Origin: Dipteris shenzhenensis
Lineage: Eukaryota
Strand: one strand, 5' to 3'
NCBI GenBank assembly: GCA_047967505.1
Contig: CM106538.1
Length of the DNA: 64,000 nt
The notes beneath the pieces were generated by a model. That model saw nothing but the letters and a program-made list of their open reading frames with translations. It was not told the DNA's origin and searched no databases. How positions within the stretch are numbered: the stretch's first letter is position 1; each line of letters starts with the position of its first letter. The translations under genes and the position numbers were made by a program. Below are positions 4,151-52,879 of this stretch, in pieces.

Positions 4151-4320
4151 GATGGGTTGCAAGGTTAGGACATGCTTTTGGACGTGCAGTGCAAGGAAGC
4201 ATGGACACTTGAGACAAATGCTTGGAATACCAATGTAGACTCAACACAATGCCCCAAGAGTGTGGGCTTCATTCCATTATGGGGTATTTATACAAGTTGG
4301 AGAGCCTCCTTCTCTGCATG

Positions 4321-24200: not shown

Positions 24201-25213
24201 CAGCCACCAGTTTATGTTCATGCTCTTCATCCTGAGTTTGTTTGCAGGTTGAAGAAAGCCTTGTATGGCTTGAAGCAAGCACCTAGAGCATGGTCTGACA
24301 AGATAGGATAGTATCTTGTCACTATTGGCTTTCAGATTTCCAAGGCAGATTTCTCACTCTATGTGAGAAATTCTCACTCTATGTGAGAAAAACAGAGAAA
24401 GGTATTATGCTGCTTGCCATTTATGTTGATGATTTGATCATCACAGGTGATAGTGATGAAGATATCCTTCATGTGAAAATGCTATTGAGGCAGAAGTTTG
24501 AGATGAAGGATTTGGGAGAGCTGCGTTATTTCTTGGGCATTGAGGTGATTAGATCACCAAGGTGGGATATAGCTCTTGCAGAGGCAGTATGGATTGGACA
24601 TGCTGTCCAAATATGGGATGACAGGCTGTAAGCCTATTTCACTTCCTTTGGAGCAGAATGTGAAGCTGAGCACAGATGCAGGTGAGCTTTTGGAAGACCC
24701 TACTATGTACAGACGCATAGTAGGAAGTTTGATTTATATGACTATTACCAGGCCAGATCTAAGCTATGCTATTGGATTGGTAAGTCAGTTTATGCAGGCT
24801 CCAAGGAAACCGCATTTGGATGTGGCTAGACACATACTCGGGTATGTGAACTCCACATTGCAGTATGGACTATTTTATGAGGCAGGGGTTGAGATACAGC
24901 TGCATGGATACACTGATGCTGATTGGGCTGGTAGTATTTTTGATAGACGATCTACCAGTGGATATGTGTTCTCTTTTGGGAGTGCTGCAGTCAATTGGAG
25001 CAGCAAGAAATAGCCTACAATTGCCTTGTCAAGCACAGAGGCTGAGTACAGGGGTATAGCAATGGCTGCATGTGAGGTAGCTTGGTTGCATAAGCTACTT
25101 TATGATATGCATCAGTCTACTGATGGGCCTATTGTCATTTATTGTGACAACATGAGCAGTATACACTTGGCAAATAACCCAGTCTTTCATGCTAGAACAA
25201 AGCAGATTGAGGT
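21247..25213 (+). mobile_element. LTR-less internal region of Ty1/copia family B (gag-PR-INT-RT-RH pseudogene)
   Basis: WYVDSGVSNHM protease, CLRSDEGGEY integrase, YVDDL RT, GYTDADWAG...STEAEY...NPVFHARTKQIEV RNase H. Many stops, both ends truncated. Confidence 0.95.
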
Positions 25214-26400: not shown

Positions 26401-27114
26401 CCTCACTGGAGGTGCTTGTTGAAGATGAAGAAATCCTAAAAATAATAACTCAAAATGAAAGTCCAAAATGTTAGTGAAGCAACAATTTGAAAAATTTACC
26501 CCAAAACTATGTAACATGTCTATCAGCACATCTGTACTGGGAAATACATCCATAGGTGTGTATAATATACAGTATAGATGCACCAATAGACACATTTTTA
26601 GGCATGCTTTAATTGGTTTTTAAACCTACATGAACTTTATTTCCTTACTCTGCCTTGCATTCCTTTCAACTTGTATACCCATCTCCAACAGGAACTCATC
26701 TCCAAGCAGCTTACACCTCATCTCCAAGCATACAAATTCATCTCTAAGAATATAAGAGAAGAGGGTGAAGAAGGAAGCCACAAGAGAAGAAGGAGAAGAA
26801 GCTTTCAAGAGGAAGGAGAAGAAGCTTTTCATACCTCTATCCAATGTAACTCTCTTGTCATCAGCTGCTCCTCTCTCTCAATCTATGATGCTTCTTGTAC
26901 TTGTGGAAAGTTGTTTTCTTCAAATTCGTCCTTTGTCGCATGCAAGAAAGAATTTTTTTGGGATCTTTCATTCTAAGTGGGGGTCGGTCGGTCTGTCATC
27001 ATTATCCATTTTATTCGAGATTTTGTGACAGAGTGCATCTAATAGCGCACCAAACTATTTTTTGAACTGTGTACCCGCACCTATAGACATGCTGTTAGCC
27101 CCATGTATAGATAA

Positions 27115-27345
27115 ATTTTCCTTCTTTATCCCTTCTCCTTTTCCTTCTCCTTCCCATCTCCCTTCTCCTTCTCCTTCCATTCTCCCTTCTCCTTCTCCTT
27201 CTCCTTCTCCTTCCCATTCCATTTTCCCTTCTCCTTTTTCCCATTTTCTTTCTTCTTCTCCTTCTCCTTCTCCTTCCCTTTTCCTTTTCCTTCTTCCCAT
27301 ACTCATTCCTTCCTCTTCTCCTTCTCTTTCTCGATCCTTTCTTTC
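27115..27345. repeat. Pyrimidine-rich (CCTTCT)n-like tract
   Basis: Directly visible. Confidence 0.9.
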
Positions 27346-27350
27346 TTGAG

Positions 27351-27818
27351 GAGAAGCCATGTGTGAGCCCAAGACATTGGATGTTGCATGTCAGATGAGG
27401 TCTATCAATGAGATTGTTGATGGTAGAAAGGTGATTGTTTGGGAGCCCCTTATTCTTGCTGGGGCCTGGGGGCCAACAGCCCCCTTGGTGGGAGTTCGAG
27501 GGCGCGGAAGCCCCCGAGGCAATGGTATAGGGAATATTCTTTGAATATTCCATGGATGACTAGTCGGTTGCACCGACTAGGTTGACTAGTCGGTTCCACC
27601 GACTACGTTGATCCGACTACCACCCTCATACCTATAAAGAGGCAACCTCCCCAGTCCATTGTATCAGATCAGTTTGGATCAGATCAGATCTTTCAGTAGC
27701 TAGTAGCTCTTCACCTAGTATTTGTCTAGATCACCATCTAAGCTCCACTATGGGAGCACACAAGTGGATGGAGCCATCATCTATACTACATCAGTATTGA
27801 AGGAAAATTTTATTCCTC
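27351..27818 (+). repeat. Truncated family D LTR, interrupted by the gypsy insertion (continues 37514-37529)
   Basis: Alignable by eye with 61527-61984. The uninterrupted copy reads ttcctctccagtttgctatgta across the insertion site. Confidence 0.9.
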
Positions 27819-28285
27819 TGTTAAGGGCAAAAGCAGCAACAGCAAAGAGGAACTAGGGGGGGAGTCCTTAGATTATTATCATTAATACGTTGTATCTAGT
27901 TTATAGTGAGATATGAAAAGACGGAAGTTCTAGGACCAGGCGGAGAACTGACGAGGCACGGCAACCGTGAAGGAGTTATGTGTGCCGGTTAGATAAAAGA
28001 GAAGAGAGCGATCATTCAGGGGGCTCATTAATGAGGATCGGAGCAAGGATCAGTGTGATCAGAAGAGGAACATTGTTATGTATCAGAGAGTACGGTGTTG
28101 TACTGCTCGGAGAAGTGTAATACAGATATTCTATTGCATCTATCTTATTGTTTTATCATGAATGATTCTGTCGATCACTGTTCTACTCTATGAATTTTCA
28201 TACGCAGTTCTGAAGTTCGATTACGCATGTAAATCTGTCGCAGTAGTGCGTTTCGAGTTAGTCTTCAGAGTAGAGAGGGCTAACA
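27819..28285 (+). repeat. 5' LTR (467 bp)
   Basis: Differs from the 3' LTR by three substitutions that I could see and one 12-bp duplication. Confidence 0.97.
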
Positions 28286-28288
28286 CTT

Positions 28289-28300
28289 TGGCGACCACGG
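28289..28300 (+). promoter_or_regulatory. Primer binding site, probably tRNA-Arg
   Basis: TGGCGACCACGG lies 3 nt after the LTR. TGGCGACCAC fits my recollection of the plant tRNA-Arg(UCG) 3' end, so the tRNA identity needs checking. Confidence 0.7.
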
Positions 28301-28391
28301 AAGATTTCCATGTTCGTCACGGTGGATACCCCGGAGAGGTTGGATGCTCCCCATCTGTAATACTCTGATTCCTCGGTGCGTGGACTAGCGC

Positions 28392-31300
28392 ATGAATGAC
28401 GCTGGGAGTGAGCCAGGGGGAACATCGCGCTCTCCGGCACGGCCTCGGGAGCCTGCAACTCCAGTATCGGCACGTACAACCCGCGAGGAACGGCATGACA
28501 GATATGTGGCTCAACGTGATCTTCTCTTCGGCTTCTTCACGGATAGTGAGAGTAGTAGCCGCTCTGACACACCTCCGCTGATCCCAGGAGAGGAAGGTCC
28601 AGTCGTTTCCGGTGTTCAGGAGGAAGGCGAATCCTCCGGACGCAGTAGCCCGTTCGATTTAACAAGTACTCCTCCGGAAGACGAAGCGTCACCGTTGCGG
28701 AATTCCCCACCACCGAGTCCCAGGAGACGGAGGGGTGGTGTGCCTGCAGGAAGCAGAGCCCCAGGTCCGTCACCAGATCCCGGTAGGGGAGGTGGAGGCG
28801 GTGGAGGCGGAGGCGGGGGTGGAGTTCCGGCGGTAAGTAGTGCGGCTATTCCACCACTGGTACCCAGGATGACGGTGAAGTACCCCAAGTTTTCGGGACG
28901 GGATAAGGAGGATGCGGATGCACATATACTGTCATTTGAGATGGCATGGATGGTGAATACGGCTCCACCAGTGCAGGCGACAGATCTTATGAAGATGGCG
29001 ACTTTCATCCCGACACTGCAGAAGCAGGCGGCAGTATGGATCGCGCAATATGGAGCTACCCATTTCGCCACGTTTGATCTACTGCGGGATGCTTTTTTGC
29101 TCCGGTTTCGGGAGGACAAGACCCGTGTTCATGTCCTGGACAAACTGGGGAAACTGGAACAGAAGAACCAAGAAGTGGAGGCGTATGCGGCCAGGTTTCG
29201 GTCGTTGATCCACTGCCTCGATGCAGCAACTACCCCGGCAGTCCCCATCCAAAATGCTTACTTCATGGAGGGGCTGAATAAAGGATTGAAAAGGTCCCTG
29301 GCATCGTTGGATCTGGAAGCTCTTTCATTGGAAGAAGTCGTCCAAGCAGCGGTGAGGGCGGAACAAGTTCTGTTTACTTCCAAGGGAAGGAAAGGAAAAG
29401 TGAAGTATGAGGAGGCTGAGGGAGACTCCGATACCGATAATGAGGAGGAGTCGGATCAGTCGGATGAGGAGGAGGACAAACGTTCCATGAGGCGGAAGGC
29501 TGGAAAAACGGCAGGGAAGTCATTTCCGGAAGGATCTGCTGCCGGAGCCAAAAGCCGGGATAGTGGAATAGGGTCCTCTTCAAAAGTTCGCAAGGATACT
29601 TGGTGTAATCGGTGCCGGAATGCAGGACACTTAGCAGAGGAATGCGGTTTGAATGAGCGGTGGTGTGCGATTTGCCAAACAGCGACGCATACCACGGAGA
29701 TCTGCCGCTATAACGCACGAATAGCCCCGACACCAGCGGTGGCGGCGGTAGTTGCGGCACCAGCCGCAGCACCAGCCGCGGTACCAGCCGCACTGGCGAA
29801 AAGACCTTGGCGGCCGAGAACGGCTGGAACAGGTGCAGATGAACTAGCAGGGGAACGGACGTTCCTATGTTTTTATTGCAATCAACCCGGACATCGAAAG
29901 GTAGATTGCGAATTATTCAAGCGCCACAAGGCGGAAAAGGAAGCAATCCGGGGATCCGGAGAAGGCAAGTCCACACCAGCAGTGAATGCGGTTCTGATTA
30001 TCGAATGCGATGATGCCAGTCAGCAACAGGATAGCAAGGAGCCTAGTCCGACGTCCGAAGAAGTACCGGAAGTACCGGCGGGTGTCCCTGTTGAAGGCAA
30101 AGTGGGAGGAAGTGCGAGCGGAGATGTGCTCGTGGTCACAAGATCCCAGGAAAAGGTGCGGGAATACAAGGCCCCGCAAGAGAAGGGGAGACCTACGGCG
30201 TTGGACTGGCAGGCACAACAAAAGGTGCGGTCGACGGTCGGTGAATGGGTCCAGAAAACCCCAACGGTGTTACCTAGGCCGAGCGCGGACAAGGCAGTCT
30301 CGGTGACGGAGAATGGTGCGAAGGTGGCAAGGCGCCTGCAAGGAGAGCAGCCAGAAGCGACTTGTCTACCTACCAGTCAGAAGGACAGCCTGATGACCGG
30401 CGAGGAGGGTGTTGAACCATATGATTTATGGCAGGATTTGCGGAAACAGCAAATACACATGACAATGGAGCAATTGTTAGCATTGGTACCCAATTTCCGG
30501 AGTTCTCTCATCAAACAATTGACGGAACCAGTCAGGGCGATGGAGTCGGAGATGGAAGCGGTAACAATGGAGGTGTCGTCAGACGGATCTGCAAAGCCTG
30601 AAGCGGAAGTACAGCCTCCTGTTTTTGACGAAGCGGTCCCGGTAATTTCCGTAACACTGGAGAACAGCCGTGTGGGAGGGGTGTTGCTGGACGGAGGGTC
30701 TGGGGTCAACATCCTGTCCGAACAAATGCTGGTGCCATTGGGTATCACAAAATGGGAATCAGCACCCTTCGCCGTTCGGATGGCAGACCAACGGAGAGTG
30801 CAGCCGTTAGGATTGCTCCGTGGATTGAAAATGGAGGTTTGCGGCGTGAAGTTCGAAATCGCTGCGGTGATTCTCCGGATGGAGGATATTAGCGGGTCAT
30901 ACCCGTTATTGCTCGGAAGACCGTGGTTGCGGCAGGCCCGTGTGAAACAAGACTGGCAATCAGACCGCATCACCATTCGGAAAGGAAAAAAGAAGCTGAA
31001 GCTCTCGGTACATACCAAACAAGGGCTGAGGACACCATTCCGACCGACGATGGCGGAAGGTATCCATATGATGGACGGGATGGGGGTCGAAGAGGAGGAT
31101 GATTGCTTCAGTAGGAATACGGAGCTGGTAAGCTTGTTCGAGGTCGATGTGGTTGCCGTTTTAAAGCAATATCAGCATCAGATTCCCTCGGCTACGCAGG
31201 AGTCATCCAGTTCCACGAAAGAACCAGTCGAAGGGAGTCTACCGGAAGGCACAGGAGACATGCCGGACGAAGCAGGAGTGGCGGAGGCGGAAAGAGTTTT

Positions 31301-31646
31301 CGAGCAGGAACTCCGTCGCTCGCGGAGGGTCAAAGAAGACGAGCTGCTGGATCTTAACCTCGGGACGGAGGAGGAGCCAAAGAACGTCCGTGTCAGTGCG
31401 AAGCTCGATAAAGGATTTCGGGGAAAATTGGAGACATTGCTGAAATCCTTCAAAGACGTGTTCGCCTGGGACTACACAGATTTGCTCGGCATCGATCCCA
31501 AATTCTATCAGCACAGGATCAATCTGCAGAAGGATGCGATACCGGTTCGGCAACAACGGTATAGAATGAACCCGAACTATGCCCAGAGAGAGGGTGAAGG
31601 AGGAGCTGGACAGGCTGCTAAAGGTCGGGTTTATCTATCCGGTTGA
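28392..31646 (+). CDS. gag-pol: Gag-protease-RT start (polyprotein part 1)
   Basis: Capsid VKYPKFSG..DADAHI, three CX2CX4HX4C knuckles, aspartic protease LLDGGSGVNIL, pre-RT FKDVFAWDY. Frameshifts at ~31585. Confidence 0.93.
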   Translation: MNDAGSEPGGTSRSPARPREPATPVSARTTREERHDRYVAQRDLLFGFFTDSESSSRSDTPPLIPGEEGPVVSGVQEEGESSGRSSPFDLTSTPPEDEASPLRNSPPPSPRRRRGGVPAGSRAPGPSPDPGRGGGGGGGGGGGGVPAVSSAAIPPLVPRMTVKYPKFSGRDKEDADAHILSFEMAWMVNTAPPVQATDLMKMATFIPTLQKQAAVWIAQYGATHFATFDLLRDAFLLRFREDKTRVHVLDKLGKLEQKNQEVEAYAARFRSLIHCLDAATTPAVPIQNAYFMEGLNKGLKRSLASLDLEALSLEEVVQAAVRAEQVLFTSKGRKGKVKYEEAEGDSDTDNEEESDQSDEEEDKRSMRRKAGKTAGKSFPEGSAAGAKSRDSGIGSSSKVRKDTWCNRCRNAGHLAEECGLNERWCAICQTATHTTEICRYNARIAPTPAVAAVVAAPAAAPAAVPAALAKRPWRPRTAGTGADELAGERTFLCFYCNQPGHRKVDCELFKRHKAEKEAIRGSGEGKSTPAVNAVLIIECDDASQQQDSKEPSPTSEEVPEVPAGVPVEGKVGGSASGDVLVVTRSQEKVREYKAPQEKGRPTALDWQAQQKVRSTVGEWVQKTPTVLPRPSADKAVSVTENGAKVARRLQGEQPEATCLPTSQKDSLMTGEEGVEPYDLWQDLRKQQIHMTMEQLLALVPNFRSSLIKQLTEPVRAMESEMEAVTMEVSSDGSAKPEAEVQPPVFDEAVPVISVTLENSRVGGVLLDGGSGVNILSEQMLVPLGITKWESAPFAVRMADQRRVQPLGLLRGLKMEVCGVKFEIAAVILRMEDISGSYPLLLGRPWLRQARVKQDWQSDRITIRKGKKKLKLSVHTKQGLRTPFRPTMAEGIHMMDGMGVEEEDDCFSRNTELVSLFEVDVVAVLKQYQHQIPSATQESSSSTKEPVEGSLPEGTGDMPDEAGVAEAERVFEQELRRSRRVKEDELLDLNLGTEEEPKNVRVSAKLDKGFRGKLETLLKSFKDVFAWDYTDLLGIDPKFYQHRINLQKDAIPVRQQRYRMNPNYAQREGEGGAGQAAKGRVYLSG

Positions 31647-34600
31647 CCCTGCAACGTGGCTTTCGCCAATAGTGATTGTTCCGAAAAAGAATTTGAAGTT
31701 GCGGGTCTGTGTTGACTACAGAAAGCTTAACGCAGCGACAATCACGGATCCGTTTCCCTTGCCGTTTAATGATACTATGCTGGATACAGTGGCAGGTCAC
31801 GAGATGTATTCTTTTCTGGATGGCTTCAGTGGGTATAACCAGGTGCAGATGGCACCAGAAGATCGAGAGAAAACAGCCTTCATCACGGAGTGGGGAGCAT
31901 TTGCTTTCCTGGTGATGGCATTTGGGCTAAAGAATGCTCCGGCAACATTTCAATGCATGGTCCAAGAAATATTTGATGATTATTTACTAATCTTTATGCA
32001 GGTATTTCTGGACGATTTCAGTGTTTTCGGGAGTCGCGAGCAGCACCTTGAGCATCTGAAGAAATGCTTAACCCGGTGTAGGGAGGCACGGTTGTGTCTG
32101 AACCCTATGAAATGTGCATTCGCCGTGGGCAGCGGTATGCTGCTGGGTTGCATTATCTCGACGGAAGGCATTGCGGTAGATCCGGCGAAGGTCGAAGCGA
32201 TTCGGCAGGCCAAGGTTCCTGGCAACGGTAAGCAGCTCGGGAGATTCCTAGGGCAGGTTAAATGGCACAGCCGAATGCTGCGGTATCTGGCGGATGTGGC
32301 GACACCACTGTATGACCAACTCAACAAAGTACCGGTCGTCTGGTCTCCTGCTTGTGACTTAGCTTTTCGACGGCTCAAACTGATGTTGGCGACAGCACCG
32401 GTGGTTCAGCCGCCAGATTGGACGAAGATGTTTCATGTCTTCGTGGATGCCTCGGACGTGGCTATTGGTAGTGTCCTCATGCAGGAAGCGACAAGCAAGT
32501 GGTTCCGACCGGTGTATTATGCAAGTCGCAGGTTGTCAAAAGCCGAACGGAATTACTCTACGACGGAGCGGGAAGCATTGGGGATGATTTATTCCATAAC
32601 AAAGTTTCGTCACTACCTGTTGGGGAATCGGTTCACGTTTCATGTGGATCATTCCGCCTTGTTGTATTTGGTACACAAGCCCGAGCTCACTGGAAAGTTG
32701 GCCCGGTGGATGATGCTTTTACAGGAGTTCGACTTCACGGTGGTCCATCGACCAGGAAGTACACATGCCGTAGCGGATTACCTTTCGCGGTTGGAATCTG
32801 GCGAAGACCCGATGGGTGTGAAAGACGATTTTCCGGATGCCCAGCTGTTCGAACTGGAGGCGGTGGTACCGGCAGCTCCAAAGACGTGGTACGATGACAT
32901 GTTTCACTTTGTCGACACGGGCCAGATGCGCGACGGAATGTCGCGAGACCAGCGGAAACGGCTCGCGCTCAAGAGCAGAGACTTCCGGATCATTGCTGAC
33001 CAATTGTATAAGCAGGGGCTAGATGGTGTGTTGCGACGGTGTGTGTACCCACATGAGCAGGAGGTCATCCTGGAAGAGGCTCACCAAGGAATCAGCGGTG
33101 GACACTTCGCAGGAGAAGTAACCGGACGGAAGGTACTCCAAGGAGGTCTGTGGTGGCCAACATTAATGGGGGATGCGCATAGGTTCGTCAAAAGATGCGA
33201 TGTGTGCCAGAGGTTGGGCCAGCCATCAGGTCGGGACCGGATGCCACATAATCCCATACTGGCCCTCGAACCGTTCATGAAGTGGGGGCTGGACTTTGTA
33301 GGTCCGTTTTCGCCGCCGGCGAGGAGGACAGGTAACCGGTATATCCTGGTGGCGACGGATTACTGTACCAAATGGGTGGAGGCCAGAGCACTGAAGGATA
33401 ATTCGGCAAAGGCTGTGGCCAGATTCCTTTATGAAGCCATTATGACACGGTACGAATGTCCGGTTGAGCTCGTCACGGATCAAGGTGGGCATTTCATTAA
33501 TGCGGTGTTACGGGAACTGGTTACCCGGCACCTAATCATTCATAAGAAGTCCACAGTGTATTACCCTCAGGCAAACGGACAGGCGGAGTCCTCGAATAAG
33601 GTGTTGCTAGTCATTCTGAAAAAGCTGGTCAATGAAAATCGGACAGATTGGGATGAAAAACTTTACTCCGCATTATGGGCGTTCCGGACTTCCTATAAGG
33701 TTGCGACGGGGTTCACGCCATTCAAGTTGGTTTACGGAGTTGAAGCAGTGGTCCCCATGGAATTCCTAGTACCGAGTCTACGGATTGCAGCGGCAGAGAA
33801 ATTGGGCTGGGACGAGTCCGTAGACCGGAGGATTGAACAGCTGGATCGGCTGGGTGAGGAGCGGTTCAACAGTGCGTATCTTGCACAGGTAGTCCAGGAC
33901 AGACGGAAGGTCTGGGTGGACCGTCATTCAAAGAAGAAGACCTTCAAACGGAGAGATGCCGTGATATTGTTTAACACTCGGATGGGTCCGCATCCGGGTA
34001 AGCTGAAGTTACGGTGGGGAGGTCCGTATTGGGTGGTGGAGCGTTATGGTGACGGCACGTTCCGATTAGGAACACTACAGGGGGAGCTGTTGCAGAAGCC
34101 GGTAAATGGATTTCGTCTCCGACCATATACAGGGCCCATGCCACCTTACCCATTTCCGGAGATACCACCTGTGAAGATCATTTCAAATGCATTTGTAGCC
34201 ATTTCGGTGGAGAAACCGATGATGGGGGCTATTAGTACGCACGTGTGGTATCACTCACTTTATTCCGAGAAACGGTGGGAGCAAAGCTTCGTGTCGCGGA
34301 GCGAGGACGCCGCCATGCAATCTACTGAATCTTCGAAGTGGGGCTTTTATCAGGATGATGGGACACTTGATCGTTGCATGCAAACAAGGAGTTCACTAGG
34401 GCATCCAAAAGGCAATTTGGAAGCAAAAGGGGGCTTATTTCCGACTCTTTGTTTTCCAGAACTCTTCTCCCTCGCATCCCAGCTTCTCGCTGCTATGGTG
34501 GTCTTCCATCTGATCAATCCGTTACCTGTTGGGGATGAGGCTGTGCAGTCTTGGCTGACACGAGCTCGTCTGGTGGAGTTCGCGGGTTTGCCATGGGCTA

Positions 34601-36633
34601 CGACACCAGTTCATCCATTGGCGCAAGATATCTTGGCGCAGCTTGCACGCGGGCGCAAGGTCGTGGTGTATGGAAAGACTTTCACCTTGTGCAAGGAGCT
34701 GGTAGCGGCCCGGTTGCACTTGCCGGTGGATGGTCCATGCAAAGTCACGAAGCTTACCAGCAGTGCCATGGAGGCAGCTCTCGGCGCAGGTTGCAAGGGG
34801 GAGTACAACATGAAGAAGCTGGATGCTTCACAGAAGACATGCTACAAGTTTATTGCGGAGGCACTCTGGCAGAAGGTGAAAGCAGAGCTACTGGGACAGG
34901 CCCAGTTTACCTATTTCCAGAGGGCGGAGCAAGGGAAACCGGTTCCCTGGGCGAAGCTGATGGCGGACAGAATTCTGGAGGTGGCCAAGAAGCTCTTGAA
35001 GCCAACGGCAACATCCCGGATGGGGCAAGTCTTATTTCTTTTGTTCGGACCAGATGCGGAACCGGTAGTCCCAGGGTCGTATGTGGAGGTGGAGGAGTCC
35101 ACAGACGATGCTTCGGACAAGGAGTCCAAGGAGGTGGAACCAGCAAGATCAACAACGGAGGGAGCTCTGATGCCAAGGAACCAGGTGACTCCGGTAGTAC
35201 CTGCGGTGGAGGTTACGGCGATAGTACCTGCGGTGGTGGTTCCGGCAGAAGTTCCACAGGGCAGCCAGAGGAGTAGGCCCGCGGTCTCAGCAACATCGAG
35301 CCGCATGGCCAGTTTATTGAAAAGAAAGTTGGCTCTTGTGCCAGAAGGAGCAATGTTGAAGAAAACCCGCCCGGACGCTGAGGCCTTGCAAGGGGAAAGC
35401 TCAGTCCACACTCGGGAGGACAGTTCGGGGAGACAGGCATGTCAAGAGGAAACCCGTGTAGTCCCAAGGGGGAGTGGTGAGCTGCAGCTATCTCTGCCGG
35501 TGGAGACATATGATCTGGTCACGGCACGACGGTTGGTGGAGCGCTTGCTCCAATGTTTTCAGAAGGGGCAGCTAGAGGAGAATGAGGCGAGGTTGCGCCA
35601 GGAAAATGCCAGGCTGCTCGAACGCAATCAACAGCTGCAGGAGCAGTTGTTACAATTCCAACAGATGGATGCACGACGACAGCAGGATATGGAGGAAGCA
35701 AGGACGGCGATTGTCGCCCAAACTCAAGAACACCTGCGGCTGACGGAACAATTGACGGAGAAGGCTACAACTGCGACCGCCAGGGTGCAGTTGTTGGAAG
35801 CGGAAGTGATGGGGTATCGGCAACCCTCTAGCTCTACACGCATGCTGGACGAGGCACTTTTGTTGGATTTATCGGAAGCCTTCGTCGCAGAGATGCAGGG
35901 TATTTTTCTTGATCATCAATGTCAATTGCGAGTAGAGCTGGAGCGGGCTTGCAGGCCTCTCGATCGACGGTTGGCCCGGAGGGATGAGGATGATCCGGCG
36001 GGAGGGGGCGCAGGAACAACATTTTTACCACCAGTACCGGTGACAAAAACTGCGGCACAACCGGAGGGTGGAAGTTCTACATCGGCAAATACTCTCGGGA
36101 AGCAGACAGCGGCGAGACCGGTGGATTCTTCCGAAGGCTATGTCAAACGGATCGCCGAACTGGAAGAAGCCCTCCGAAGAGCGAAGGCCAGAGGAAAAAG
36201 ACCCGAGATCGCACAGGTTCCCGCAATGAAGCCACGACCCCAAGCGGACGCAGCAGCCGCTTTTGTGGCAGCTTTTCCGGAGCCAGCGGACGGGGAATCC
36301 TTTGACGCAAGGCACTTTTTGCAGCTGAAAGAACACGTCGCGGTGGTGCAACAGCAGTGTGACGATGCCAGATCTCAGCTGTTGGCACTCAAGCTCGCCC
36401 GGAAAGAAGAGCACCATCAACATGAAGTTGAGGTGAAGAGCCTCATGGCAGATCTGCTGAAGATCAGAGCTACTACGGCAGAACAATCAATAGGTGCCCA
36501 AACCAAGGAATTGGGGCGGGTAATGAAACGACTGGATGGTGTGGCGAAGAAAGCAGATCGCAGTATGCGGGTAACCGATCTCGAACTCGCTCTATCTGCG
36601 AAGACCCGACTGCATGAAGAGGAGCTACAATAG
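31579..36633 (+). CDS. pol: RT-RNase H-integrase continuing in frame into an extra ORF
   Basis: RT (FLDGFSGYNQ, FGLKNAPATFQ, FLDDF), RNase H (VDASD, NYSTTEREAL, VDH), integrase (H..H..CDVC, GLDFVGP, TDQG, QANGQAE, GPY). About 800 further codons follow without a stop. Confidence 0.95.
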   Translation: MPRERVKEELDRLLKVGFIYPVDPATWLSPIVIVPKKNLKLRVCVDYRKLNAATITDPFPLPFNDTMLDTVAGHEMYSFLDGFSGYNQVQMAPEDREKTAFITEWGAFAFLVMAFGLKNAPATFQCMVQEIFDDYLLIFMQVFLDDFSVFGSREQHLEHLKKCLTRCREARLCLNPMKCAFAVGSGMLLGCIISTEGIAVDPAKVEAIRQAKVPGNGKQLGRFLGQVKWHSRMLRYLADVATPLYDQLNKVPVVWSPACDLAFRRLKLMLATAPVVQPPDWTKMFHVFVDASDVAIGSVLMQEATSKWFRPVYYASRRLSKAERNYSTTEREALGMIYSITKFRHYLLGNRFTFHVDHSALLYLVHKPELTGKLARWMMLLQEFDFTVVHRPGSTHAVADYLSRLESGEDPMGVKDDFPDAQLFELEAVVPAAPKTWYDDMFHFVDTGQMRDGMSRDQRKRLALKSRDFRIIADQLYKQGLDGVLRRCVYPHEQEVILEEAHQGISGGHFAGEVTGRKVLQGGLWWPTLMGDAHRFVKRCDVCQRLGQPSGRDRMPHNPILALEPFMKWGLDFVGPFSPPARRTGNRYILVATDYCTKWVEARALKDNSAKAVARFLYEAIMTRYECPVELVTDQGGHFINAVLRELVTRHLIIHKKSTVYYPQANGQAESSNKVLLVILKKLVNENRTDWDEKLYSALWAFRTSYKVATGFTPFKLVYGVEAVVPMEFLVPSLRIAAAEKLGWDESVDRRIEQLDRLGEERFNSAYLAQVVQDRRKVWVDRHSKKKTFKRRDAVILFNTRMGPHPGKLKLRWGGPYWVVERYGDGTFRLGTLQGELLQKPVNGFRLRPYTGPMPPYPFPEIPPVKIISNAFVAISVEKPMMGAISTHVWYHSLYSEKRWEQSFVSRSEDAAMQSTESSKWGFYQDDGTLDRCMQTRSSLGHPKGNLEAKGGLFPTLCFPELFSLASQLLAAMVVFHLINPLPVGDEAVQSWLTRARLVEFAGLPWATTPVHPLAQDILAQLARGRKVVVYGKTFTLCKELVAARLHLPVDGPCKVTKLTSSAMEAALGAGCKGEYNMKKLDASQKTCYKFIAEALWQKVKAELLGQAQFTYFQRAEQGKPVPWAKLMADRILEVAKKLLKPTATSRMGQVLFLLFGPDAEPVVPGSYVEVEESTDDASDKESKEVEPARSTTEGALMPRNQVTPVVPAVEVTAIVPAVVVPAEVPQGSQRSRPAVSATSSRMASLLKRKLALVPEGAMLKKTRPDAEALQGESSVHTREDSSGRQACQEETRVVPRGSGELQLSLPVETYDLVTARRLVERLLQCFQKGQLEENEARLRQENARLLERNQQLQEQLLQFQQMDARRQQDMEEARTAIVAQTQEHLRLTEQLTEKATTATARVQLLEAEVMGYRQPSSSTRMLDEALLLDLSEAFVAEMQGIFLDHQCQLRVELERACRPLDRRLARRDEDDPAGGGAGTTFLPPVPVTKTAAQPEGGSSTSANTLGKQTAARPVDSSEGYVKRIAELEEALRRAKARGKRPEIAQVPAMKPRPQADAAAAFVAAFPEPADGESFDARHFLQLKEHVAVVQQQCDDARSQLLALKLARKEEHHQHEVEVKSLMADLLKIRATTAEQSIGAQTKELGRVMKRLDGVAKKADRSMRVTDLELALSAKTRLHEEELQ

Positions 36634-36972
36634 CTGCGGAGAACGAGTCATGTTGAGAGAGCAGCTATGTTGGTCGACCTGCGGACAGCATGCCGCTATA
36701 TTCATCGGATGGCGGCAGTAGCTCAGCAGGCGGGGGCGGCGGCACCACCTTTCTATGGACAGCTCCAAATTTTTGTGGATGCCCATGCTCTCAACCCGCA
36801 ACAGCTACCTTTACTTCGACCGGCGCAAGCGGCTCCGGCAGTACAAGTACCGGCGCCGGCAGCTCCAGTAGTTCCGGCGGCAGCAGCGGCAGCGGCAGCA
36901 GTTCCGGCGGCGGCAGCGACAACAGCGGCGGTGGCGGACGATGACGGTGGCGACGTCGAGGATGAACCATAG
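36634..36972 (+). CDS. In-frame Ala/Pro-rich, acidic-tailed continuation of the extra ORF after a single TAG
   Basis: ORF 36667-36972 is in the same frame as 31579-36633 and the 11 intervening codons are open. Confidence 0.7.
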   Translation: MRRTSHVERAAMLVDLRTACRYIHRMAAVAQQAGAAAPPFYGQLQIFVDAHALNPQQLPLLRPAQAAPAVQVPAPAAPVVPAAAAAAAAVPAAAATTAAVADDDGGDVEDEP

Positions 36973-37029
36973 CGGAGAACCGATGGGTTCGGATGCGGAT
37001 CCGAAATCCGATTCACCGGGAGTGCCAAG

Positions 37030-37508
37030 TGTTAAGGGCAAAAGCAGCAACAGCAAAGAGGAACTAGGGGGGGAGTCCTTAGATTATTATCATTAATACG
37101 TTGTATCTAGTTTATAGTGAGATATGAAAAGACGGAAGTTCTAGGACCAGGCGGAGAACTGACGAGGCACGGCAACCGTCACGGCAACCGTGAAGGAGTT
37201 ATGTGTGCCGGTTAGATAAAAGAGAAGAGATCGATCATTCAGGGGGCTCATTGATGAGGATCGGAGCAAGGATCAGTGTGATCAGAAGAGGAACATTGTT
37301 ATGTATCAGAGAGTACGGTGTTGTACTGCTCGGAGAAGTGTAATACAGATATTCTATTGCATCTATCTTATTGTTTTATCATGAATGATTCTGTCGATCA
37401 CTGTTCTACTCTATGAATTTTCATACGCAGTTCTGAAGTTCGATTACGCATGTAAATCTGTCGCAGTAGTGCATTTCGAGTTAGTCTTCAGAGTAGAGAG
37501 GGCTAACA
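37030..37508 (+). repeat. 3' LTR (479 bp)
   Basis: Direct repeat of 27819-28285 with a tandem duplication of CACGGCAACCGT (~37168-37191). Confidence 0.97.
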
Positions 37509-37554
37509 TCCTCTCCAGTTTGCTATGTAGAAAGCAAATGAAAAGAATGGTACC

Positions 37555-40500
37555 TTGAAGCATTGTTTTGAGGAGATTCTCCTGATCTCAATCTGTGTAT
37601 CCATGGCAAAGTATGTGAACCACTACTAGAGGACACTACAGGTCCACTAATATTTTGTGATTGCTACTGTGAGTTCTATGTAGCATTACCATTTTGTGCA
37701 TCTACATCATCAATGACATTTACTGGTTTATACTAGTTGCTCATCTCATAAAAAACAATGTCTCTGCTCACTGTAAACCTACAAGTAGAAGGGTTATAGC
37801 ATCTATACCCTTTCTACTGTAGAGAATAACCAATAAAGATGCACTTCTCAACTTTTGGATCTAACTTGGATCTCAACTCATCTGGCACATAAACTTAGGC
37901 AATGCAACCAAAAACTTTCAAATGAGAAGTATACCTCTCTTGTGGCATTATGCCATGTATTGCTGCAGTGGGAGTCTTGTTCATTATGTAGACTACTATA
38001 GCAACTATTTCAGCCCAATAATAATCTAGCAGGCTTTTTTCATTGAGCATGGCACGAGATACCTCTCCAATATGCCTGTTTTTCCTTTCTACAAGTCCAT
38101 TTTGCTGTGGGGTATGACTATATGAATATTGCTGCTTTATGCCATGCTTTTGTAGGAATCTTGCAAACTCATTTGAGAGGTACTCTCCCCCTCCATATGA
38201 CCTTAGGCATTTTATTTGTAGGCCTATTTCTTTTTCAACCATAGCTTTAAAAGCTTTGAAATGCCCAAACACTTCACTTTTCTTTTTCATAAAATACACC
38301 CAAACCTTTCTGCTGTAGTCATCAATAAAAGTGACAAAATAATGATAGCTTCCAATAGATGCAGCTTTACTAGTCCACACATCAGAGTGGATTAATTCCA
38401 ATGGCCTCTTAGTCTCTTGAACATGTCTAAGAAATGGTTTCCTTGCCTGTTTTCCAAATTGACAGGCTTCACATACCTTATGCATTTCTGCAACCTTGAA
38501 CTTAGGCAATCCTACAACAATATTTTGGGCTTGCATTAATTAAAGTCACTGTACATTAACATGACCAATGGGTTTATGCCATATATCAATATCTACAACC
38601 ACTCCGGTCCCATGTGCAAACATTGCTGCACTCAATTCAGGCATGTTTGCATCCAATGTAAACATCCTGCCCTTCTTCTTCCCCTGTGCTCTCAAGTGAC
38701 CTTTATTTTTCATATCCTCAAAAAAGCATCCATGAGGATTAAATCTTACCTGCAAGCCCTGCTCAACCATTTGACCAACAGAAACCAGGATCTTGGTGAT
38801 ATTCGGGACATAAAATACATCAGACTTGTATTTCTTTTTCCCATCCCGCATAGATAAAGGAATTTTACCAATCTGCACAATAGGATGTGCAGTATCATCA
38901 CCAGTCTCCACAAATCCTGGTCTTTCCATTTTCCTTGCATCTTGCATCTATTTTGCGTGACCTGTCATGTGGTTTGATGCACCTGAGTTAACATTTCACA
39001 CATCATTGCTTTCTTTTGCACTTGTCACAGAATTGGTCATATGGTGCACCATAAACAAAATGCTCATTTCTATCATCACCTTGTCTACTAGAGGATGCAT
39101 AATTGCCTTGTTGCAATTTTCCATTCATGATGTCGTTCTGCTTTTTATAGTAGTCTTTAGCTATATGACCCATTTTACCATAGTAGTAGCATTCAACATT
39201 GCTGTTTGCATTTTGGCATCTCTGCCATCCACCATGACCTCTTTGGCTCCCCTTGCCTCTAAAGTTACCATGTCCTCCTCCATAGGACTAGTTTTCTTGA
39301 ATTTGCTGCATATTTTGATTTCTACCACGGCCTCTAGATCGACCTACTCTACCTCTGTGTCTACCTCTTCCAGCATTTGAGTAGAAGACAACTTCTTTTG
39401 AAGTTTCTCTTGAAGAAGATGCACCACCATTTCTCTGCTCTTCAGATATTAGAAGAGCAATCAACTCCTTAAAATCAGGAAAATTCTCACGGACGGCAAT
39501 GGATGTTCGGAACTGTGCATAATCCTTTCGTAGACCATTTAAGGTCACAGAAACTAAATCATCATCTTCCACTAGTGACCCAATGGAGGCAAGTGCATTT
39601 GAAATCTTCTTCACCTTCATGTGGTAGTCATTGATGCTCATATTTTCTCTCTGCACACTATGCAACTCCTACTTGAGCTACATTTTCTTGGCTTGCATAT
39701 TTGTGCTATACATTTTTGTCAAAGTATCCCATGCCTCCTTCGGCATGCTTGCATCCTGAATATGCACAATCATAGAATCTAAAGTATTGATAGACAGCCA
39801 GTACGTAACTTTTTTGGCTCTCTCATGCCATCCTTTAAATGCCTACAACTCCTGTTGATTGGGAACATTAGGAATAATTGGTTCTGGTTCAGCTTCAATA
39901 ATGAACTCCCAATAGCCTTTTCCCTTAAGAAAATTCATCATTCTAAACTTCCATGCTGGAAAGTTGTTCTTGTCAAGCTTTTCAGTGACTATCTGTGAAA
40001 GAGGATCAGACACCATTACAGAACAGTGCAAAAATATTCTATCATTGCAAAGGACAACTTCTGCCTCACAAGGGCAAATTTGCAAAACTGACGAAAGTGG
40101 TATTTGAGAACATGGTCACTTCCTAGGGATGATTTTGCATCAACATGCAATAAGAATATTTTTGTCACTCCCAATATCTCTATTCATAGGCGTACGATGC
40201 AATTTCTATGGCAACTTTTCACCAACCTGTAGAATAGTGGTCGGAAAACAAAAAACAATGCACTCTTGCACTTTTTGATTGTGCTACTTGCAGAGATTTG
40301 CTCCCGAAATTGAAAAAGGAAAGCAACATTGATCCTCTTACCAAGACACTGCAAACTTGGTTTTCTTTCTTGATCTCCTTACCCAAGCTGTGATACCATG
40401 TGAAGAGAGTGGGAGAGAAGTAAGGAGTCTCACTTGTAGCTGTCTCACATACACAATGGGGGAATACACACAAAGGTGGAGGCTGAAAAAAATTTTCATC

Positions 40501-40749: not shown

Positions 40750-42391
40750 GCCTACATAGCCCTTGGGGGGATCTGCCTATTTTTTATTGATTGTTGACGA
40801 CTATAGTAGGAAGATGTGAGTGTACTTTCTTCGCAAAAAGGCTCAAGCTTTTGGTAAATTGAAAGAATGGCTACAGCTTGTTGAAAATGAAACAGGGAGA
40901 AAAGTGAAGAAAATCAGATTGGATGGTGGTGGTGAGTTTGTTTCTACAGAGTTTGGAGTTTTTTGCAAGAGAAAATGGATCAAGCGACAAACGATGACAC
41001 CACACACACCTTAGCAAAATTTAGTTGTTGAATGCCGAATGCGGACCACCGTGGAGATGGGGAGGTGTATGTTGAAAGGTGTTGGACTGCCAAACCACTT
41101 TTGGACTGAGGCTATCAATACTATGGTTTACAGCCTTAATCACAACTATATAAAGGCACTCAAAGGTAAAACACCACATGAGGCTTATAACAGTAAGAAG
41201 CCATCTGTCTCCCATTTTAGAATGTTTTGGCATGAATGCTATGCACATGTACCAGACAAAGAGAGAAACAAGCTACAACCAAAAAGCACCAAATGTATCT
41301 TTTTAGGCTATTGTGATGAGAAGAAAGCCTATAAGTTGTATGACCAAGAGGCAAAGAAGATCATAGCAAGCCACGATGTGGTGTTCAAGGAGTAGCCACA
41401 TGTAGTGGAGGTAGAGAAGAGCTCTTCCAATTTATCATCAAGTGAAGAGGTAAATCACTATGGACCTGTCCCAAGAGCTATAAAGGAGGAGGAAATATCA
41501 GATGATCAAGGTATAAGTCACCAACCTATTGTTACACCATCGGAAAAGCCATTTCCACGATGGGTAGGCAACTCTATGACCATGATAACCAGATGCCTAT
41601 GTCTGTTGAGTAGCATGCAAATGGACCAAGGTGGTCTCAGAGAATCGAGGAGCAAAGGAGGGCTTCTGCTCACATAGTCAATATGGCCTTGATGGCTGAG
41701 ATTATTGGAGAAGTAAAGGAGCTTGTGAGTTTGGAGGAAGCACTTGTAGACTGAGATTGGAAAAATGGTATGCAAGTAGAATATGATAGCATCATGAAGA
41801 ATGAAACTTGGGAGCTGGTAGATTGACCACCTAACAAAAAGGTTATTGGCACCAAGTTGGTTTGGAAGGTAAAGTACAAGGCCAATGGGACTTTGGAAAA
41901 GTACAAAGCCAGATTGGTTGCGCAAGGATTTTTGCAGATTGAAGGATTTGATTTTCAGGAATCTTTCACTCCGACTTCCAGTATGACCACTATTTGCACA
42001 GTACTATTACTAGCTGCTGATAAAAAGTGGCCCGTTTATTAAATGGATGTTAAATTAGCATTCTTGAATGGTGACCACAAGGAGGAGGTGTACATGGCTC
42101 AGCCACCTGGGTTTGAGGCCCCCCATTCTGAGAACAAGGTATATAAGCTCAAGAAGGCTTTGTACAGGCTGAAATAGGCCCCAAGAGCATGGTACCAATG
42201 GATATATAAATTTTTTCATAAATTAAATTTCAAAAGATGTGCCTCAGATGCTAACTTGTATGTGTACAAGAAAGGTGGAAAATCTACTATTATTGTTCTA
42301 TATGTGGATGATCTCCTTATTACAGGTGACTATGAAGACATGATCCAGTAGTCAACAAAGGCATTGACAAATGAGTTTAAGATGACAGACT

Positions 42392-52115: not shown

Positions 52116-52879
52116 GGTGCAAACAATGTACTCAAAAGTGTCCTGAAAAACTCTGTATGAATCAACTGCAAATACACTGAAGATGCCAAGTGAAATCTCT
52201 GTACCGTCGGTGAAGATAGAACTGCTGTATATAAGATCTGATCTGTGTTACAAGGCTTGTGGCAATGATGCCGGGAATAGCCAAGAGGCTTTACAAGGCT
52301 GAAAAAAATGATGTGCACGATGCCGTGAGATAGCCAAATACAATGGTGGCATGTGTGTGTGAAATCAAGTGCTATCTGCCCACTGAATCAATCTGCAATG
52401 CCTCTGAACTCTGAAGTCTGCTCACTGAACTGATGAACGTAAGGTTTCCGGTAATGTAATGATGTGAAATCGGATGTGAGCATATGGACTGACTCCGAGT
52501 AGGTACTAGTCGGGAATTTCGGGCATGGCTTAGATTGGCAACTTGGGGAATTCAAAGCGTCCCCTCTATGGCGATCTAGTCTACTCTGATCTAGATCTAA
52601 ACCAACCGTCGATCGATGAAAGAGCAGCGAATAACTCCTTTTCCTTTGTTCTTTTTAAGTGCTGGGTCAGATGCGTCGATGTAGAGGCAAATGTGCGTGA
52701 AGGAAGTGGTTTTGCCGGCGAGGCTCAAATGTGAGTGTAACTTGCGCCGAAATGTGCACATGATGTAATGAGCGCGTAGAGCACAAAAAATCGAGCGACT
52801 TTCCTTTTTGGAGCACCCTCAAATTCTTCCTGGATCAAGAGATATGACTTGATCTAGGTGGAGGGGCAAAAGGAGTGCA

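Follow-up and report, generated by a model that had tools for sequence, protein, structure and literature searches.

A conserved C-terminal Gag-Pol extension, with a candidate PMD-like domain, behind the integrase of a Ty3/gypsy retrotransposon family

The window, i.e., the whole 64-kb stretch of Dipteris shenzhenensis DNA that was analysed, carries a Ty3/gypsy LTR retrotransposon at positions 27819 to 37508 on the plus strand; all features discussed below lie on that strand. The 5′ LTR (27819–28285, 467 bp) and the 3′ LTR (37030–37508, 479 bp) are bounded by TG...CA and were located through direct repeats (families D1/D2), a blastn self-match, and inspection of the sequence. The two are almost identical, with approximately three mismatches and one 12-bp indel in the blastn self-match, and the 3′ LTR has a 12-bp duplication at 37168–37191. 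The same five bases, TCCTC, flank the element on the left (27814–27818) and on the right (37509–37513) as a target-site duplication. Three nucleotides past the 5′ LTR there is a candidate primer-binding site starting with TGG (28289–28303), which we take not to be of the initiator-Met type; no tRNA genes with which to compare it were found in the 64-kb window. At the other end, a weakly purine-rich, non-coding spacer of 57 nt (36973–37029) occupies the place of the polypurine tract. The non-coding internal DNA of the element amounts to 106 + 57 nt, and an Rfam search of 27000–38500 gave no match.

The first frame (28392–31646) encodes Gag and the protease, as judged from Pfam matches. It includes Retrotrans_gag (29013–29279), a zinc knuckle (29868–29909), and a weak protease match (30648–30935; E 0.054 and 0.23, under the Pfam cut-offs). 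Pfam and landmark positions identify the second frame (31570–34188), with the RT (RVT_1, 31678–32151), the RNase H (RT_RNaseH, 32341–32730), the integrase zinc domain (Integrase_H2C2, 33052–33213), the integrase core (rve, 33268–33567), and, from 34018, the GPY/F module with the motif GGPYWVV. The element is placed in Ty3/gypsy by its TG...CA LTRs, its target duplication of 5 bp, and its domain order, gag-PR-RT-RNase H-integrase, in which the protease has weak matches and its position as sole support. In the pol frame, Pfam detected neither a chromodomain nor a second RNase H at E <= 0.1.

Two lesions interrupt the coding region of this copy. Four extra bases in an AG run (31585–31592; the bases fall at ~31586–31591) put the RT out of frame with gag-PR, and in sequencing run X3, nine contigs, which account for 4439 of 9213 of the depth, lack the four bases at 31585. 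Further downstream, a premature TAG is present at 36631–36633, where the sister fragments P0042 and P0022 have Gln and continue. A first-pass annotation of this DNA had described the element as young, and the near identity of the LTRs agrees with this; with its frameshift near 31586 and its premature stop at 36631, the window copy is therefore young but defective. For the same reason, this particular copy is unable to yield the fusion discussed below as a normal polyprotein.

At the level of the family, the pol frame stays open past the GPY/F module for ~927 codons, up to 57 nt before the 3′ LTR; in the window copy, the TAG interrupts it. The first-pass annotation had reported a frame that runs from the GPY module via a linker of ~100 codons into a segment starting at Met 34495 and ending at 36972. 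The linker (34189–34494) has 102 codons, the motifs quoted for the segment are present, and the stop is at 36970–36972 as described, although the frame as read in this copy already ends at the TAG. Moreover, the word linker undersells the region: its length was given correctly, while an alignment (A8) reveals a conserved motif block, and a conserved Met lies at 34315. Since close relatives have this motif block in common, the linker is not a mere spacer.

The linker is followed by a globular domain of ~185 aa (34495–35049), which indirect evidence (phmmer, hhalign, and the Atlas neighbours of its homologues) marks as possibly PMD/DUF1985/Transposase_32-like. Next come an acidic, Pro/Val-rich stretch of low complexity (35050–35304) and a basic stretch (35314–35373) with the sequence LLKRKL...LKKTRP. 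The latter fits a bipartite pattern (RK, 10 residues, KKTRP), is conserved in P0012 and, almost completely, in P0002, and is a putative nuclear-localisation signal. A first heptad-compatible helical region of ~105 aa, 81 of them free of Pro and Gly, lies at 35506–35823 and forms a strongly conserved block in alignment A4. The second group of such helices (36298–36606, with segments at 36298–36408 and 36517–36606) is covered by fragments P0004, P0009, P0015, P0021, and P0022. The remaining family tail (36634–36972) consists of a helix, a hydrophobic Ala/Pro/Val-rich stretch, and an acidic end, and P0042 terminates with the same ...GGDVEDEP. Tandem repeats detected by TRF within the tail are confined to 35195–35246 (27 nt, 1.9 copies, in the acidic stretch) and 36830–36937. 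Thus, the acidic region, the basic stretch, the coiled coils, and the Ala-rich acidic tail that had been noted earlier were all located, by composition and by a heptad heuristic of our own making, on which every coiled-coil call in this work depends. Heptad-compatible helices are also seen in P0041 and P0044.

The tail has the properties of coding sequence. Its frame contains two stops in 928 codons, compared with 22–34 in the other five frames. In the RT-INT, domain, and remaining-tail segments, the second codon position has the lowest GC content; it is the lowest in the linker as well, but by only ~0.03. With the 814-aa tail as query, phmmer found 42 matches at E <= 1e-3 among 1.84 billion representatives (26 at <= 1e-10 and nine at <= 1e-30), and together these tile the entire tail at 25–85% identity. 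Tiling is likewise seen with 55 of the 57 stored relatives, at 20–87% identity. In the sequencing run of organism B, the family is present at very high depth over the full element, tail included (15114 pieces). Hence the tail is coding and conserved across divergent copies. A whole-pol homologue search scored on residues 874–1687 returned nothing among the 8000 candidates scored, and no locus was confirmed among metagenome contigs (tail and P0044 as queries) or viral contigs (tail and A6 as queries).

Four database fragments, which as called ORFs are open by construction, extend in a single frame from the GPY/F end of the integrase across the junction and into the globular domain: P0057 (pol residues 798–1023, 71% identity), P0020 (836–987, 56%), P0052 (818–1101, 22%), and P0044 (827–1397, 21%). 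The collinear series of integrase end, linker, domain, disordered stretch, and coiled coil also recurs, in one frame, in a clade that is ~21% identical. The first-pass annotation had named a chance fusion to integrase, with a stop behind it in most sister copies, among the observations that would overturn its reading. The fusion is not a chance event of the window copy, since the junction is crossed in one frame by all four fragments, of which two belong to a distant clade. Some relatives depart from this arrangement. P0045, P0003, and P0007 all begin at Met 34315 inside the linker, which could mean that these copies have a stop further upstream or that the Met is a start of its own. The ends of P0020, P0028, and P0003 are scrambled, and these are therefore decayed copies. 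Collectively, 34189–36972 is a conserved C-terminal extension of Gag-Pol in a Ty3/gypsy family, and not a gene of its own, be it of the envelope or another type.

We also considered differences between the window copy and run X3 as a test of selection. Among the best-supported 40 of 1134 differences, the 38 that fall in coding frames were classified as synonymous or non-synonymous, with respective counts of 6 and 11 for the tail, 6 and 13 for gag-PR, and 0 and 2 for pol. This test was rejected, as the differences are most likely private to the window copy and arose after insertion.

What kind of domain does the extension carry? Its relatives are readily connected: phmmer matched the window domain to P0034 (1.8e-08) and P0041 (8.3e-05), BLASTP matched it to P0047 (2e-13), and hhalign joined the window clade both to the P0047/P0044 clade (98.8%, E 8e-17, 185 columns) and to the clade of P0041 (96.9%, E 1.7e-10). 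P0041, from the fern Adiantum, is the sole named relative and is annotated as an ordinary hypothetical protein. None of 20 Pfam queries (the window tail, the window domain, and 18 relatives) matched PF10536, PF04195, PF20167, PF09331, or PF03078 at E <= 10, in a search where HMMER filters drop most matches above E ~0.1 and very weak ones could be hidden. A precomputed Pfam tag is absent from all 17+3 database relatives. Against PDB sequences, the whole tail had no match, and the profile had a single one at chance level (RbsD, E 1.1).

The leads on the fold come from the ESM Atlas, through models of the homologues P0041 and P0047 rather than of the window domain. On the feature scale, where shuffled proteins reach 0.9 in 4–10 of 100 cases, P0041 lies close to PMD clusters (0.89, with 171/256 shared, and 0.83), and P0047 lies close to DUF1985 (0.91, 10 hits) and PMD (0.91), its top three hits being unnamed clusters. 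Structural comparison of P0041, a poor model (pTM 0.39), gave Transposase_32 (target-side TM 0.66; 156 aligned), a PMD cluster (0.62, 179 aligned), and a DUF1985 cluster (0.52). For P0047 (pTM 0.69), the corresponding matches are Transposase_32 (0.56/0.72, 164 aligned), a PMD cluster (0.57/0.65, 177 aligned), and PMD-phosphatase (query-side TM 0.61; 205 aligned). Overall, the TM values are 0.52–0.73 on the target side and, for P0047, 0.51–0.64 on the query side, and all rows fall below the bar for naming a family. In addition, a transposon-encoded domain followed by a coiled coil, here identified with the heptad heuristic, is the pattern of PMD-CC, Tr28-CC, and VANC proteins. The earlier suggestion of a PMD or Transposase_32 relative therefore stands in part: the sole leads, from the Atlas and two homologues, point there, while no Pfam match backs it. 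These models suggest that the ~185-aa domain most likely has the fold common to PMD, the DUF1985 of VANC, and Transposase_32.

The same data can be read differently. The extension might be a conserved part of Pol whose domain has a fold unrelated to PMD/DUF1985 and which plays a structural part in the particle or in the intasome, e.g., coiled-coil integrase multimerisation or nuclear import, with no role in DNA binding or anti-silencing. The empty Pfam result for all 20 queries, the failure of profile and whole tail to match any PDB sequence, and the position of every Atlas row under the naming bar are what an unrelated fold would give, and the first helical region, which is among the most conserved blocks, would suit a structural role. 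Yet two independent homologues fall near the same plant transposon-linked families by features as well as by structure, and P0047 has TM values above 0.5 on both sides. Moreover, the order of domain and coiled coil is that described for PMD-CC extra ORFs (PMC4408406). We therefore regard an unrelated fold with a purely structural role as unlikely, although it deserves to be kept in mind.

A sense position between pol and the 3′ LTR is typical of env-like ORFs, as described in PMC7264820, and the tail could in principle be a decayed or divergent relative of Athila/Bagy2-type sense ORFs, an env-like or membrane-associated protein anchored near its C-terminus. Coiled coils are present, and 19-residue Kyte-Doolittle windows reach 2.0, 1.74, and 1.64. 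Since three windows exceed 1.6 and one of them lies near the C-terminus, where P0042 also has the Ala/Val-rich stretch followed by an acidic end, some association with membranes is conceivable. These windows, however, are Pro-rich or consist of Ala runs, and distant relatives do not retain two of them. An N-terminal signal sequence is absent, as the region is in frame with integrase; the basic stretch of nuclear type is conserved; and neither the Athila ORF-1 model nor another env-type Pfam model matches. By hydropathy, the tail thus has no retroviral env features, i.e., no signal peptide and only Pro/Ala-rich hydrophobic windows. The view of the first-pass annotation that this does not look like an envelope protein is supported, there being no signal peptide, no clean membrane helix, and no env-like match in Pfam, and we consider an env-like origin very unlikely.

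Less probable still is a fragment of a host gene transduced in one lineage, or a chance read-through into non-coding DNA, of no function to the element: the premature stop in the window copy, a ratio of private differences in the tail no better than in gag (6:11 versus 6:13 among the best-supported 40 of 1134), and the annotation of the Adiantum protein as ordinary would fit such an origin, but those differences, being most likely post-insertion, are uninformative on the family, and the tail occurs at high depth in a high-copy family, is tiled by nearly all stored relatives, is collinear and integrase-fused in the ~21%-identical clade, and has a frame far too long for chance openness.

On the preferred reading, the conserved extension is probably a nuclear, oligomeric module that binds DNA or chromatin. 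By analogy, we infer that it is the pol-fused counterpart of the PMD-CC and Transposase_28-CC extra-ORF proteins of Tat elements and of the VANC protein of VANDAL. Since it is the last part of the polyprotein, the tail would be made one-to-one with integrase. The globular domain would bind DNA or chromatin, the coiled coils would give oligomers, and the tail would act in the nucleus. From here, two routes can be envisaged. The tail may stay on integrase and bias the choice of insertion sites, as chromodomains do. Alternatively, the protease may free the tail, which would then protect copies, whether new or old, against silencing in the manner of VANC. The first-pass annotation had likewise proposed a nuclear protein with a chromatin or anti-silencing role, made both alone and as an integrase fusion that could steer insertion; all of these proposals are conjectural. 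A chromatin-binding accessory role, with the tail either free or tethered, has in our estimation a somewhat better than even chance of being correct.

A wider evolutionary scenario can be attached to this model. Here, the tail would represent an old branch of the PMD/DUF1985 fold group, as yet without a name, whose members are covalently attached to integrase in the Ty3/gypsy elements of ferns and related plants, and thereby an early link between PMD and retrotransposons. From this early state, the PMD-CC/Tr28-CC ORFs of Tat elements in seed plants would have emerged, and perhaps also the genic silencing factors with a PMD; the tethered domain would pick insertion sites or shield the family from silencing. 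In its entirety, this scenario is rather doubtful.

Extra proteins are common in plant LTR retrotransposons. A PMD-like domain in frame with integrase was not found described in the literature searched, which is no proof that the arrangement is unpublished. According to Ikeda et al. (PMC5418596), who trace the relation to the angiosperm ancestor at the earliest, it "remains fully open" how Gypsy-encoded PMD and the genic PMD silencing factors are related by ancestry. The earliest PMD extra ORF has been placed in gymnosperm Tat elements (Ustyantsev et al. 2015, PMC4408406). A PMD-like domain with a coiled coil in the polyprotein, with its sole named relative from Adiantum, would move the association further back. 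Ferns are absent from the main survey of plant retrotransposons (Neumann et al. 2019, PMC6317226), which also set aside any ORF that belongs to the polyprotein in part of the copies; for this reason, fused forms may have been overlooked. A module tied to integrase would also make target choice and anti-silencing directly testable. Should the lead on the fold fail, there would still be a conserved orphan extension of Pol of ~930 aa, of moderate interest and to transposon specialists only.

How does the extension compare with known systems? The first-pass annotation had called the element Athila-like. The window element and Athila both lack a chromodomain and a second RNase H, and both have sense coding capacity between integrase and the 3′ LTR. 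Athila elements, however, are described with long LTRs, extensive non-coding regions, and an ORF apart from pol; 16% of elements have an Athila ORF-1 match (PMC6317226). In contrast, the window element has short LTRs (467/479 bp), an internal region that is almost all coding, one continuous frame in place of a separate ORF, and no match to PF03078 (Athila ORF-1), so that the label Athila-like is not supported.

The chromodomain of chromoviruses, like other targeting modules at the integrase C-terminus, resembles the tail in being an extra module directly behind the integrase GPY/F. In other Ty3/gypsy elements, the region behind GPY/F sets target choice. A role of the tail in targeting insertions is only an analogy. 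The chromodomain has ~50 aa compared with ~930 aa in the tail, and the window element has no chromodomain match.

Among host proteins, MAIN, MAIL1, and MAIL2 possibly have the same fold as the tail domain and are described as chromatin-linked and nuclear. They differ in being angiosperm host genes that work with the PP7L phosphatase (for both points, PMC5418596, PMC7156037, bioRxiv 10.1101/2024.09.27.615353). The PMD of MAIN/MAIL proteins is given as ~350 aa; at ~185 aa, the tail domain is nearer to the Transposase_32/DUF1985 type in size.

VANC of VANDAL (MuDR) elements (PMC5735166) is, like the tail, transposon-encoded and combines, as the tail may do, a domain of PMD-like fold with a coiled coil, which in VANC serves dimerisation. 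The DUF domain of VANC is reported to be structurally like MAIN/MAIL1, and VANC21 to dimerise through its coiled coil (bioRxiv 10.1101/2024.04.02.587720). PMD-C proteins have been tied to promoter motifs and VANC described as a DNA-binding anti-silencing factor (bioRxiv 10.1101/2024.09.27.615353). As discussed above, DUF1985 clusters are among the nearest Atlas neighbours of P0047. VANC differs in being a free protein of a Brassicaceae DNA transposon, for which sequence-specific DNA binding and loss of methylation from its own family have been described. The tail has no sequence-level match to VANC.

A close parallel is with Tat. The Ogre/Retand elements of this group, with their PMD-CC or Transposase_28-CC proteins, are described as Ty3/gypsy elements without a chromodomain, like the window element, and their extra ORFs, like the tail, code for an alpha domain linked to transposons, with a coiled coil behind it, and are conserved within lineages (PMC4408406, PMC6317226); PMD, PMD-CC, and Tr28-CC extra ORFs all occur in Tat lineages (PMC4408406). 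The second, archaeal-type RNase H of Tat is absent here, with only the RT-linked RNase H found (pol residues 258–387, E <= 0.1). As "zero-structure" basal Tat branches that lack it have been described (PMC13468544), a basal Tat position is conceivable all the same. The Tat modules are reported to match the Pfam models for PMD or Transposase_28, whereas the tail matches no Pfam model. In the accounts of seed-plant Tat elements, the module is a separate ORF, either in sense upstream of gag or in antisense behind pol, whereas the tail lies in frame behind integrase. On the preferred reading, the in-frame tail thus shows, in a new arrangement, an accessory module that other plant retrotransposons are already known to carry.

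The plus-strand Ty3/gypsy element at 27819-37508 is bounded by direct repeats found by self-match, each with a TG start and a CA end (5′ LTR, 27819-28285; 3′ LTR, 37030-37508), and a target duplication, TCCTC, can be read on both sides of the LTR pair. Between the LTRs there are about three substitutions and a 12-bp tandem duplication at 37168-37191, present in the 3′ LTR and absent from the 5′ LTR, which is their sole difference in length (96.87% identity over 479 self-match columns; a repeat search gives two 99% blocks). Given so few differences, the insertion is recent. A candidate primer-binding site starting with TGG follows the 5′ LTR by 3 nt (plus strand). The region between the LTRs consists of two long plus-strand frames. 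The gag-PR frame (28389-31646) carries Retrotrans_gag and a zinc knuckle in Pfam, together with a weak protease match (30648-30935) that falls below threshold, and the pol frame (31570-36633) carries RVT_1, the RT-linked RNase H, the integrase zinc domain, and the integrase core. Neither a chromodomain nor a second RNase H was detected in the element by Pfam at E <= 0.1.

The element was described in the first-pass annotation as young. This holds for the insertion, but the window copy is not intact. Four extra bases within an AG run at 31585-31592 (about 31586-31591) put gag-PR and RT in different frames. Without them both frames are continuous and form a single polyprotein ORF of about 2860 codons. 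Nine contigs of sequencing run X3, accounting for about half of the local depth, lack the four bases, which suggests that either form is common in that genome. One contig of run X1 also appears to lack them, as inferred from its letters (the difference table for X1 lists none). An X1 contig departs from the element at 31588 and returns at 35844; it may represent an internally deleted derivative without RT, integrase, and globular domain, or an alignment artefact. The second lesion is a TAG at 36631-36633, which breaks the frame downstream of integrase. Sister fragments P0022 and P0042 have Gln at this position, and P0042 continues past it to an identical ...GGDVEDEP end. This comparison indicates that the family ORF ends at 36972 and that the TAG is a nonsense change private to the window copy. 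The proposed ORF end, with a stop at 36970-36972, 57 nt upstream of the 3′ LTR, is therefore that of the family and not of this copy.

As originally noted, the pol frame stays open past the GPY/F module (34018) for 102 codons to Met 34495. Beyond this Met follow, in order, a globular segment (about 185 aa, 34495-35049), an acidic Pro-rich stretch, a basic stretch at 35314-35373, helices, and an Ala-rich acidic end. Over the 928 codons of this extension ("the tail", 34189-36972) there are 2 stops in frame versus 22-34 in the other five frames. As in RT-integrase, codon position 2 has the lowest G+C in the domain and the remaining tail; in the linker (the 102 codons ahead of Met 34495) it is lowest by a narrow margin. 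Tandem repeats account for only 35195-35246 and 36830-36937. On these grounds, the tail ORF is real. Its basic stretch matches the bipartite pattern RK-10-KKTRP, in agreement with the suggested NLS-like character; the pattern is retained in P0012 and weaker in P0002, with two basic residues in the second cluster. The helical stretches are long and free of Pro and Gly, and appear coiled-coil-like by a simple heptad count devised for this analysis; in the alignment, few parts of the tail are as well conserved as the first helical region.

A membrane-anchored protein was considered less fitting from the outset, and hydropathy windows revealed no clean membrane helix in any tail segment. Three windows exceed 1.6: one in the Pro-rich repeat, one where the globular domain starts, and one in the Ala run. 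The first two are absent from distant relatives. The Ala run has a counterpart in P0042, so a C-terminal membrane anchor is, as judged from the sequence, unlikely rather than dismissed.

A word-index protein search with the tail found no relatives among the 8000 candidates scored. Using phmmer against 1.84 billion representatives, 42 proteins were recovered at E <= 1e-3 (26 at <= 1e-10 and nine at <= 1e-30), and profile searches brought a further 3 and 17 proteins. In a local BLAST comparison of the 57 proteins collected, 55 align to the integrase end and the tail, tiling it completely at 20-87% identity; the other two (P0055 and P0058) both belong to the Adiantum-like clade. Four fragments run in one frame from the GPY/F region via the linker into the domain, two from the close family (P0057, 71%; P0020, 56%) and two from a distant clade (P0052, 22%; P0044, 21%), where it should be kept in mind that the relatives are gene calls on short contigs and hence open by construction. 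P0044 aligns to pol residues 827-1397 and is collinear onward through a disordered stretch into a coiled coil. P0023 falls inside the linker, which in close relatives holds a conserved block of its own. The Met equivalent to 34315, conserved in the linker 60 codons upstream of Met 34495, is the start of P0045, P0003, and P0007; these starts may be an effect of gene calling, follow from a stop further upstream in the three copies, or mark a genuine internal start of the tail. Scrambled ends in P0020, P0028, and P0003 are as expected of decayed copies. Run X3 contains the family, including the tail, at very high depth (15114 pieces), so the tail is not the private acquisition of a single copy. 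Protein divergence of 20-50%, with long unbroken frames and the parts arranged alike in both deep clades, is the outcome expected of divergence along active lineages and not of neutral decay, and points indirectly to constraint on the tail.

The domain family comprises at least three clades. With hhalign, the window clade matches the P0047/P0048/P0034/P0044/P0052 clade with 98.8% probability (E 8e-17, 185 columns) and the P0041 clade with 96.9% (E 1.7e-10). The motifs LPW, L-x-LP-x-(D/E)G, and AE-x-G-x-x-(V/I)-x-WA are common to the clades. P0041, a 499-aa hypothetical protein of the fern Adiantum capillus-veneris, is the sole named relative. It is annotated as free-standing, starting about 12 residues ahead of the domain, and could be either a domesticated host gene or part of a retrotransposon. 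Pfam gave no match with the window domain and one chance-level match with the window tail (Chalcone_N, E 0.027); none of 18 relatives matches plant mobile domain (PMD), Transposase_28/32, DUF1985, or Athila ORF-1 profiles at E <= 10. A PDB sequence search yielded no match for the domain profile or the tail.

In the ESM Atlas, where chance feature matches reach 0.9, the top feature neighbour of P0041 is a PMD cluster (0.89, 171/256 features), 39% of whose members carry PF10536, and a second PMD cluster ranks third (0.83). For P0047, unnamed plant clusters (0.93-0.92) are followed by DUF1985 (0.91, 10 matches) and PMD (0.91). Structure neighbours of P0041, whose model is poor (pTM 0.39), include Transposase_32 (target-side TM 0.66, 156 aligned), PMD (0.62, 179 aligned), and DUF1985 (0.52). 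Those of P0047, with a better model (pTM 0.69), are Transposase_32 (TM 0.56/0.72, 164 aligned), a PMD cluster (0.57/0.65, 177 aligned), and a PMD-phosphatase (0.61 query-side, 205 aligned). All rows for both proteins lie below the naming bar; the neighbours constitute a consistent lead from two homologues, not an assignment to a family. Based on these models, the domain probably has the PMD/DUF1985/Transposase_32 fold.

The assignment as Athila-like finds no support in the structure of the element: the LTRs are short (467 and 479 bp), the interior is nearly all coding, no separate ORF is present, and Athila ORF-1 is not matched. Its layout is closer to that of the compact clades outside the chromoviruses that are reported from non-seed plants and whose polyprotein coding sequence fills almost the entire internal part (PMC6317226). 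In addition, basal Tat branches without the additional RNase H are described (PMC13468544).

No tail-like sequence occurs elsewhere in the 64-kb window. A fragment of another Ty3/gypsy RT (10225-10760) has 56-57% protein identity to the RT start of the element. With 53% G+C versus about 40% in the surrounding TE-rich DNA, the element lies in a region packed with nested Ty1/copia elements and remnants (56881-60627, 43959-46825, 21881-25007, 40751-42324, and 10958-12242; on the minus strand, 48094-52247 and 37745-39061). The copy at 56881-60627 has an intact 1248-aa ORF, and that at 43959-46825 is in pieces with 96-98% protein identity to it. Tandem repeats occupy 1643-2809, 3967-4123, and 4319-4625: G-rich arrays of (GAGGGG)n and related units, in which the GC skew reaches 0.6, a run of (GAG)n, and an array of a 13-bp repeat. 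Owing to low complexity, none of the three minus-strand frames has a stop over 1484-2939.

The tail is a conserved coding extension fused to integrase, in which domain, disordered stretch, basic patch, and helices follow one another. Its amount would match that of integrase, and it would enter the nucleus; its helices would drive oligomerization, and the globular domain would bind DNA or chromatin. The tail might remain on integrase and bias insertion, as does the chromodomain of chromoviruses at the equivalent position behind integrase. Alternatively, the protease might free the tail, which would then act like the anti-silencing factor VANC.

The DUF domain of VANC is reported to resemble MAIN/MAIL1 structurally, and VANC21 is predicted to be dimeric via a coiled coil (bioRxiv 10.1101/2024.04.02.587720). 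VANC is described as a known DNA-binding factor, and PMD-C proteins are placed at promoter motifs, countering Polycomb silencing (bioRxiv 10.1101/2024.09.27.615353). In the literature searched, which covered main-text passages, no account was found of a PMD-like domain that shares a reading frame with integrase. The text of Neumann et al. (PMC6317226) indicates that no ferns were sampled ("fern" occurs 0 times) and that ORFs belonging to the polyprotein in some elements were discarded. The tail would be an accessory module of a known type that sits in a new position, within a divergent, unnamed sequence family. By analogy, we infer that it is the pol-fused counterpart of the Tat extra-ORF and VANC/PMD modules. 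The extra ORFs of Tat-lineage Ty3/gypsy elements are reported to encode PMD, PMD with a coiled coil, or Transposase_28 with a coiled coil; they lie either upstream in the sense orientation or downstream in the antisense orientation (PMC4408406). In Tat elements, domain and coiled coil are separate from pol, whereas here the domain and helices lie in frame behind integrase.
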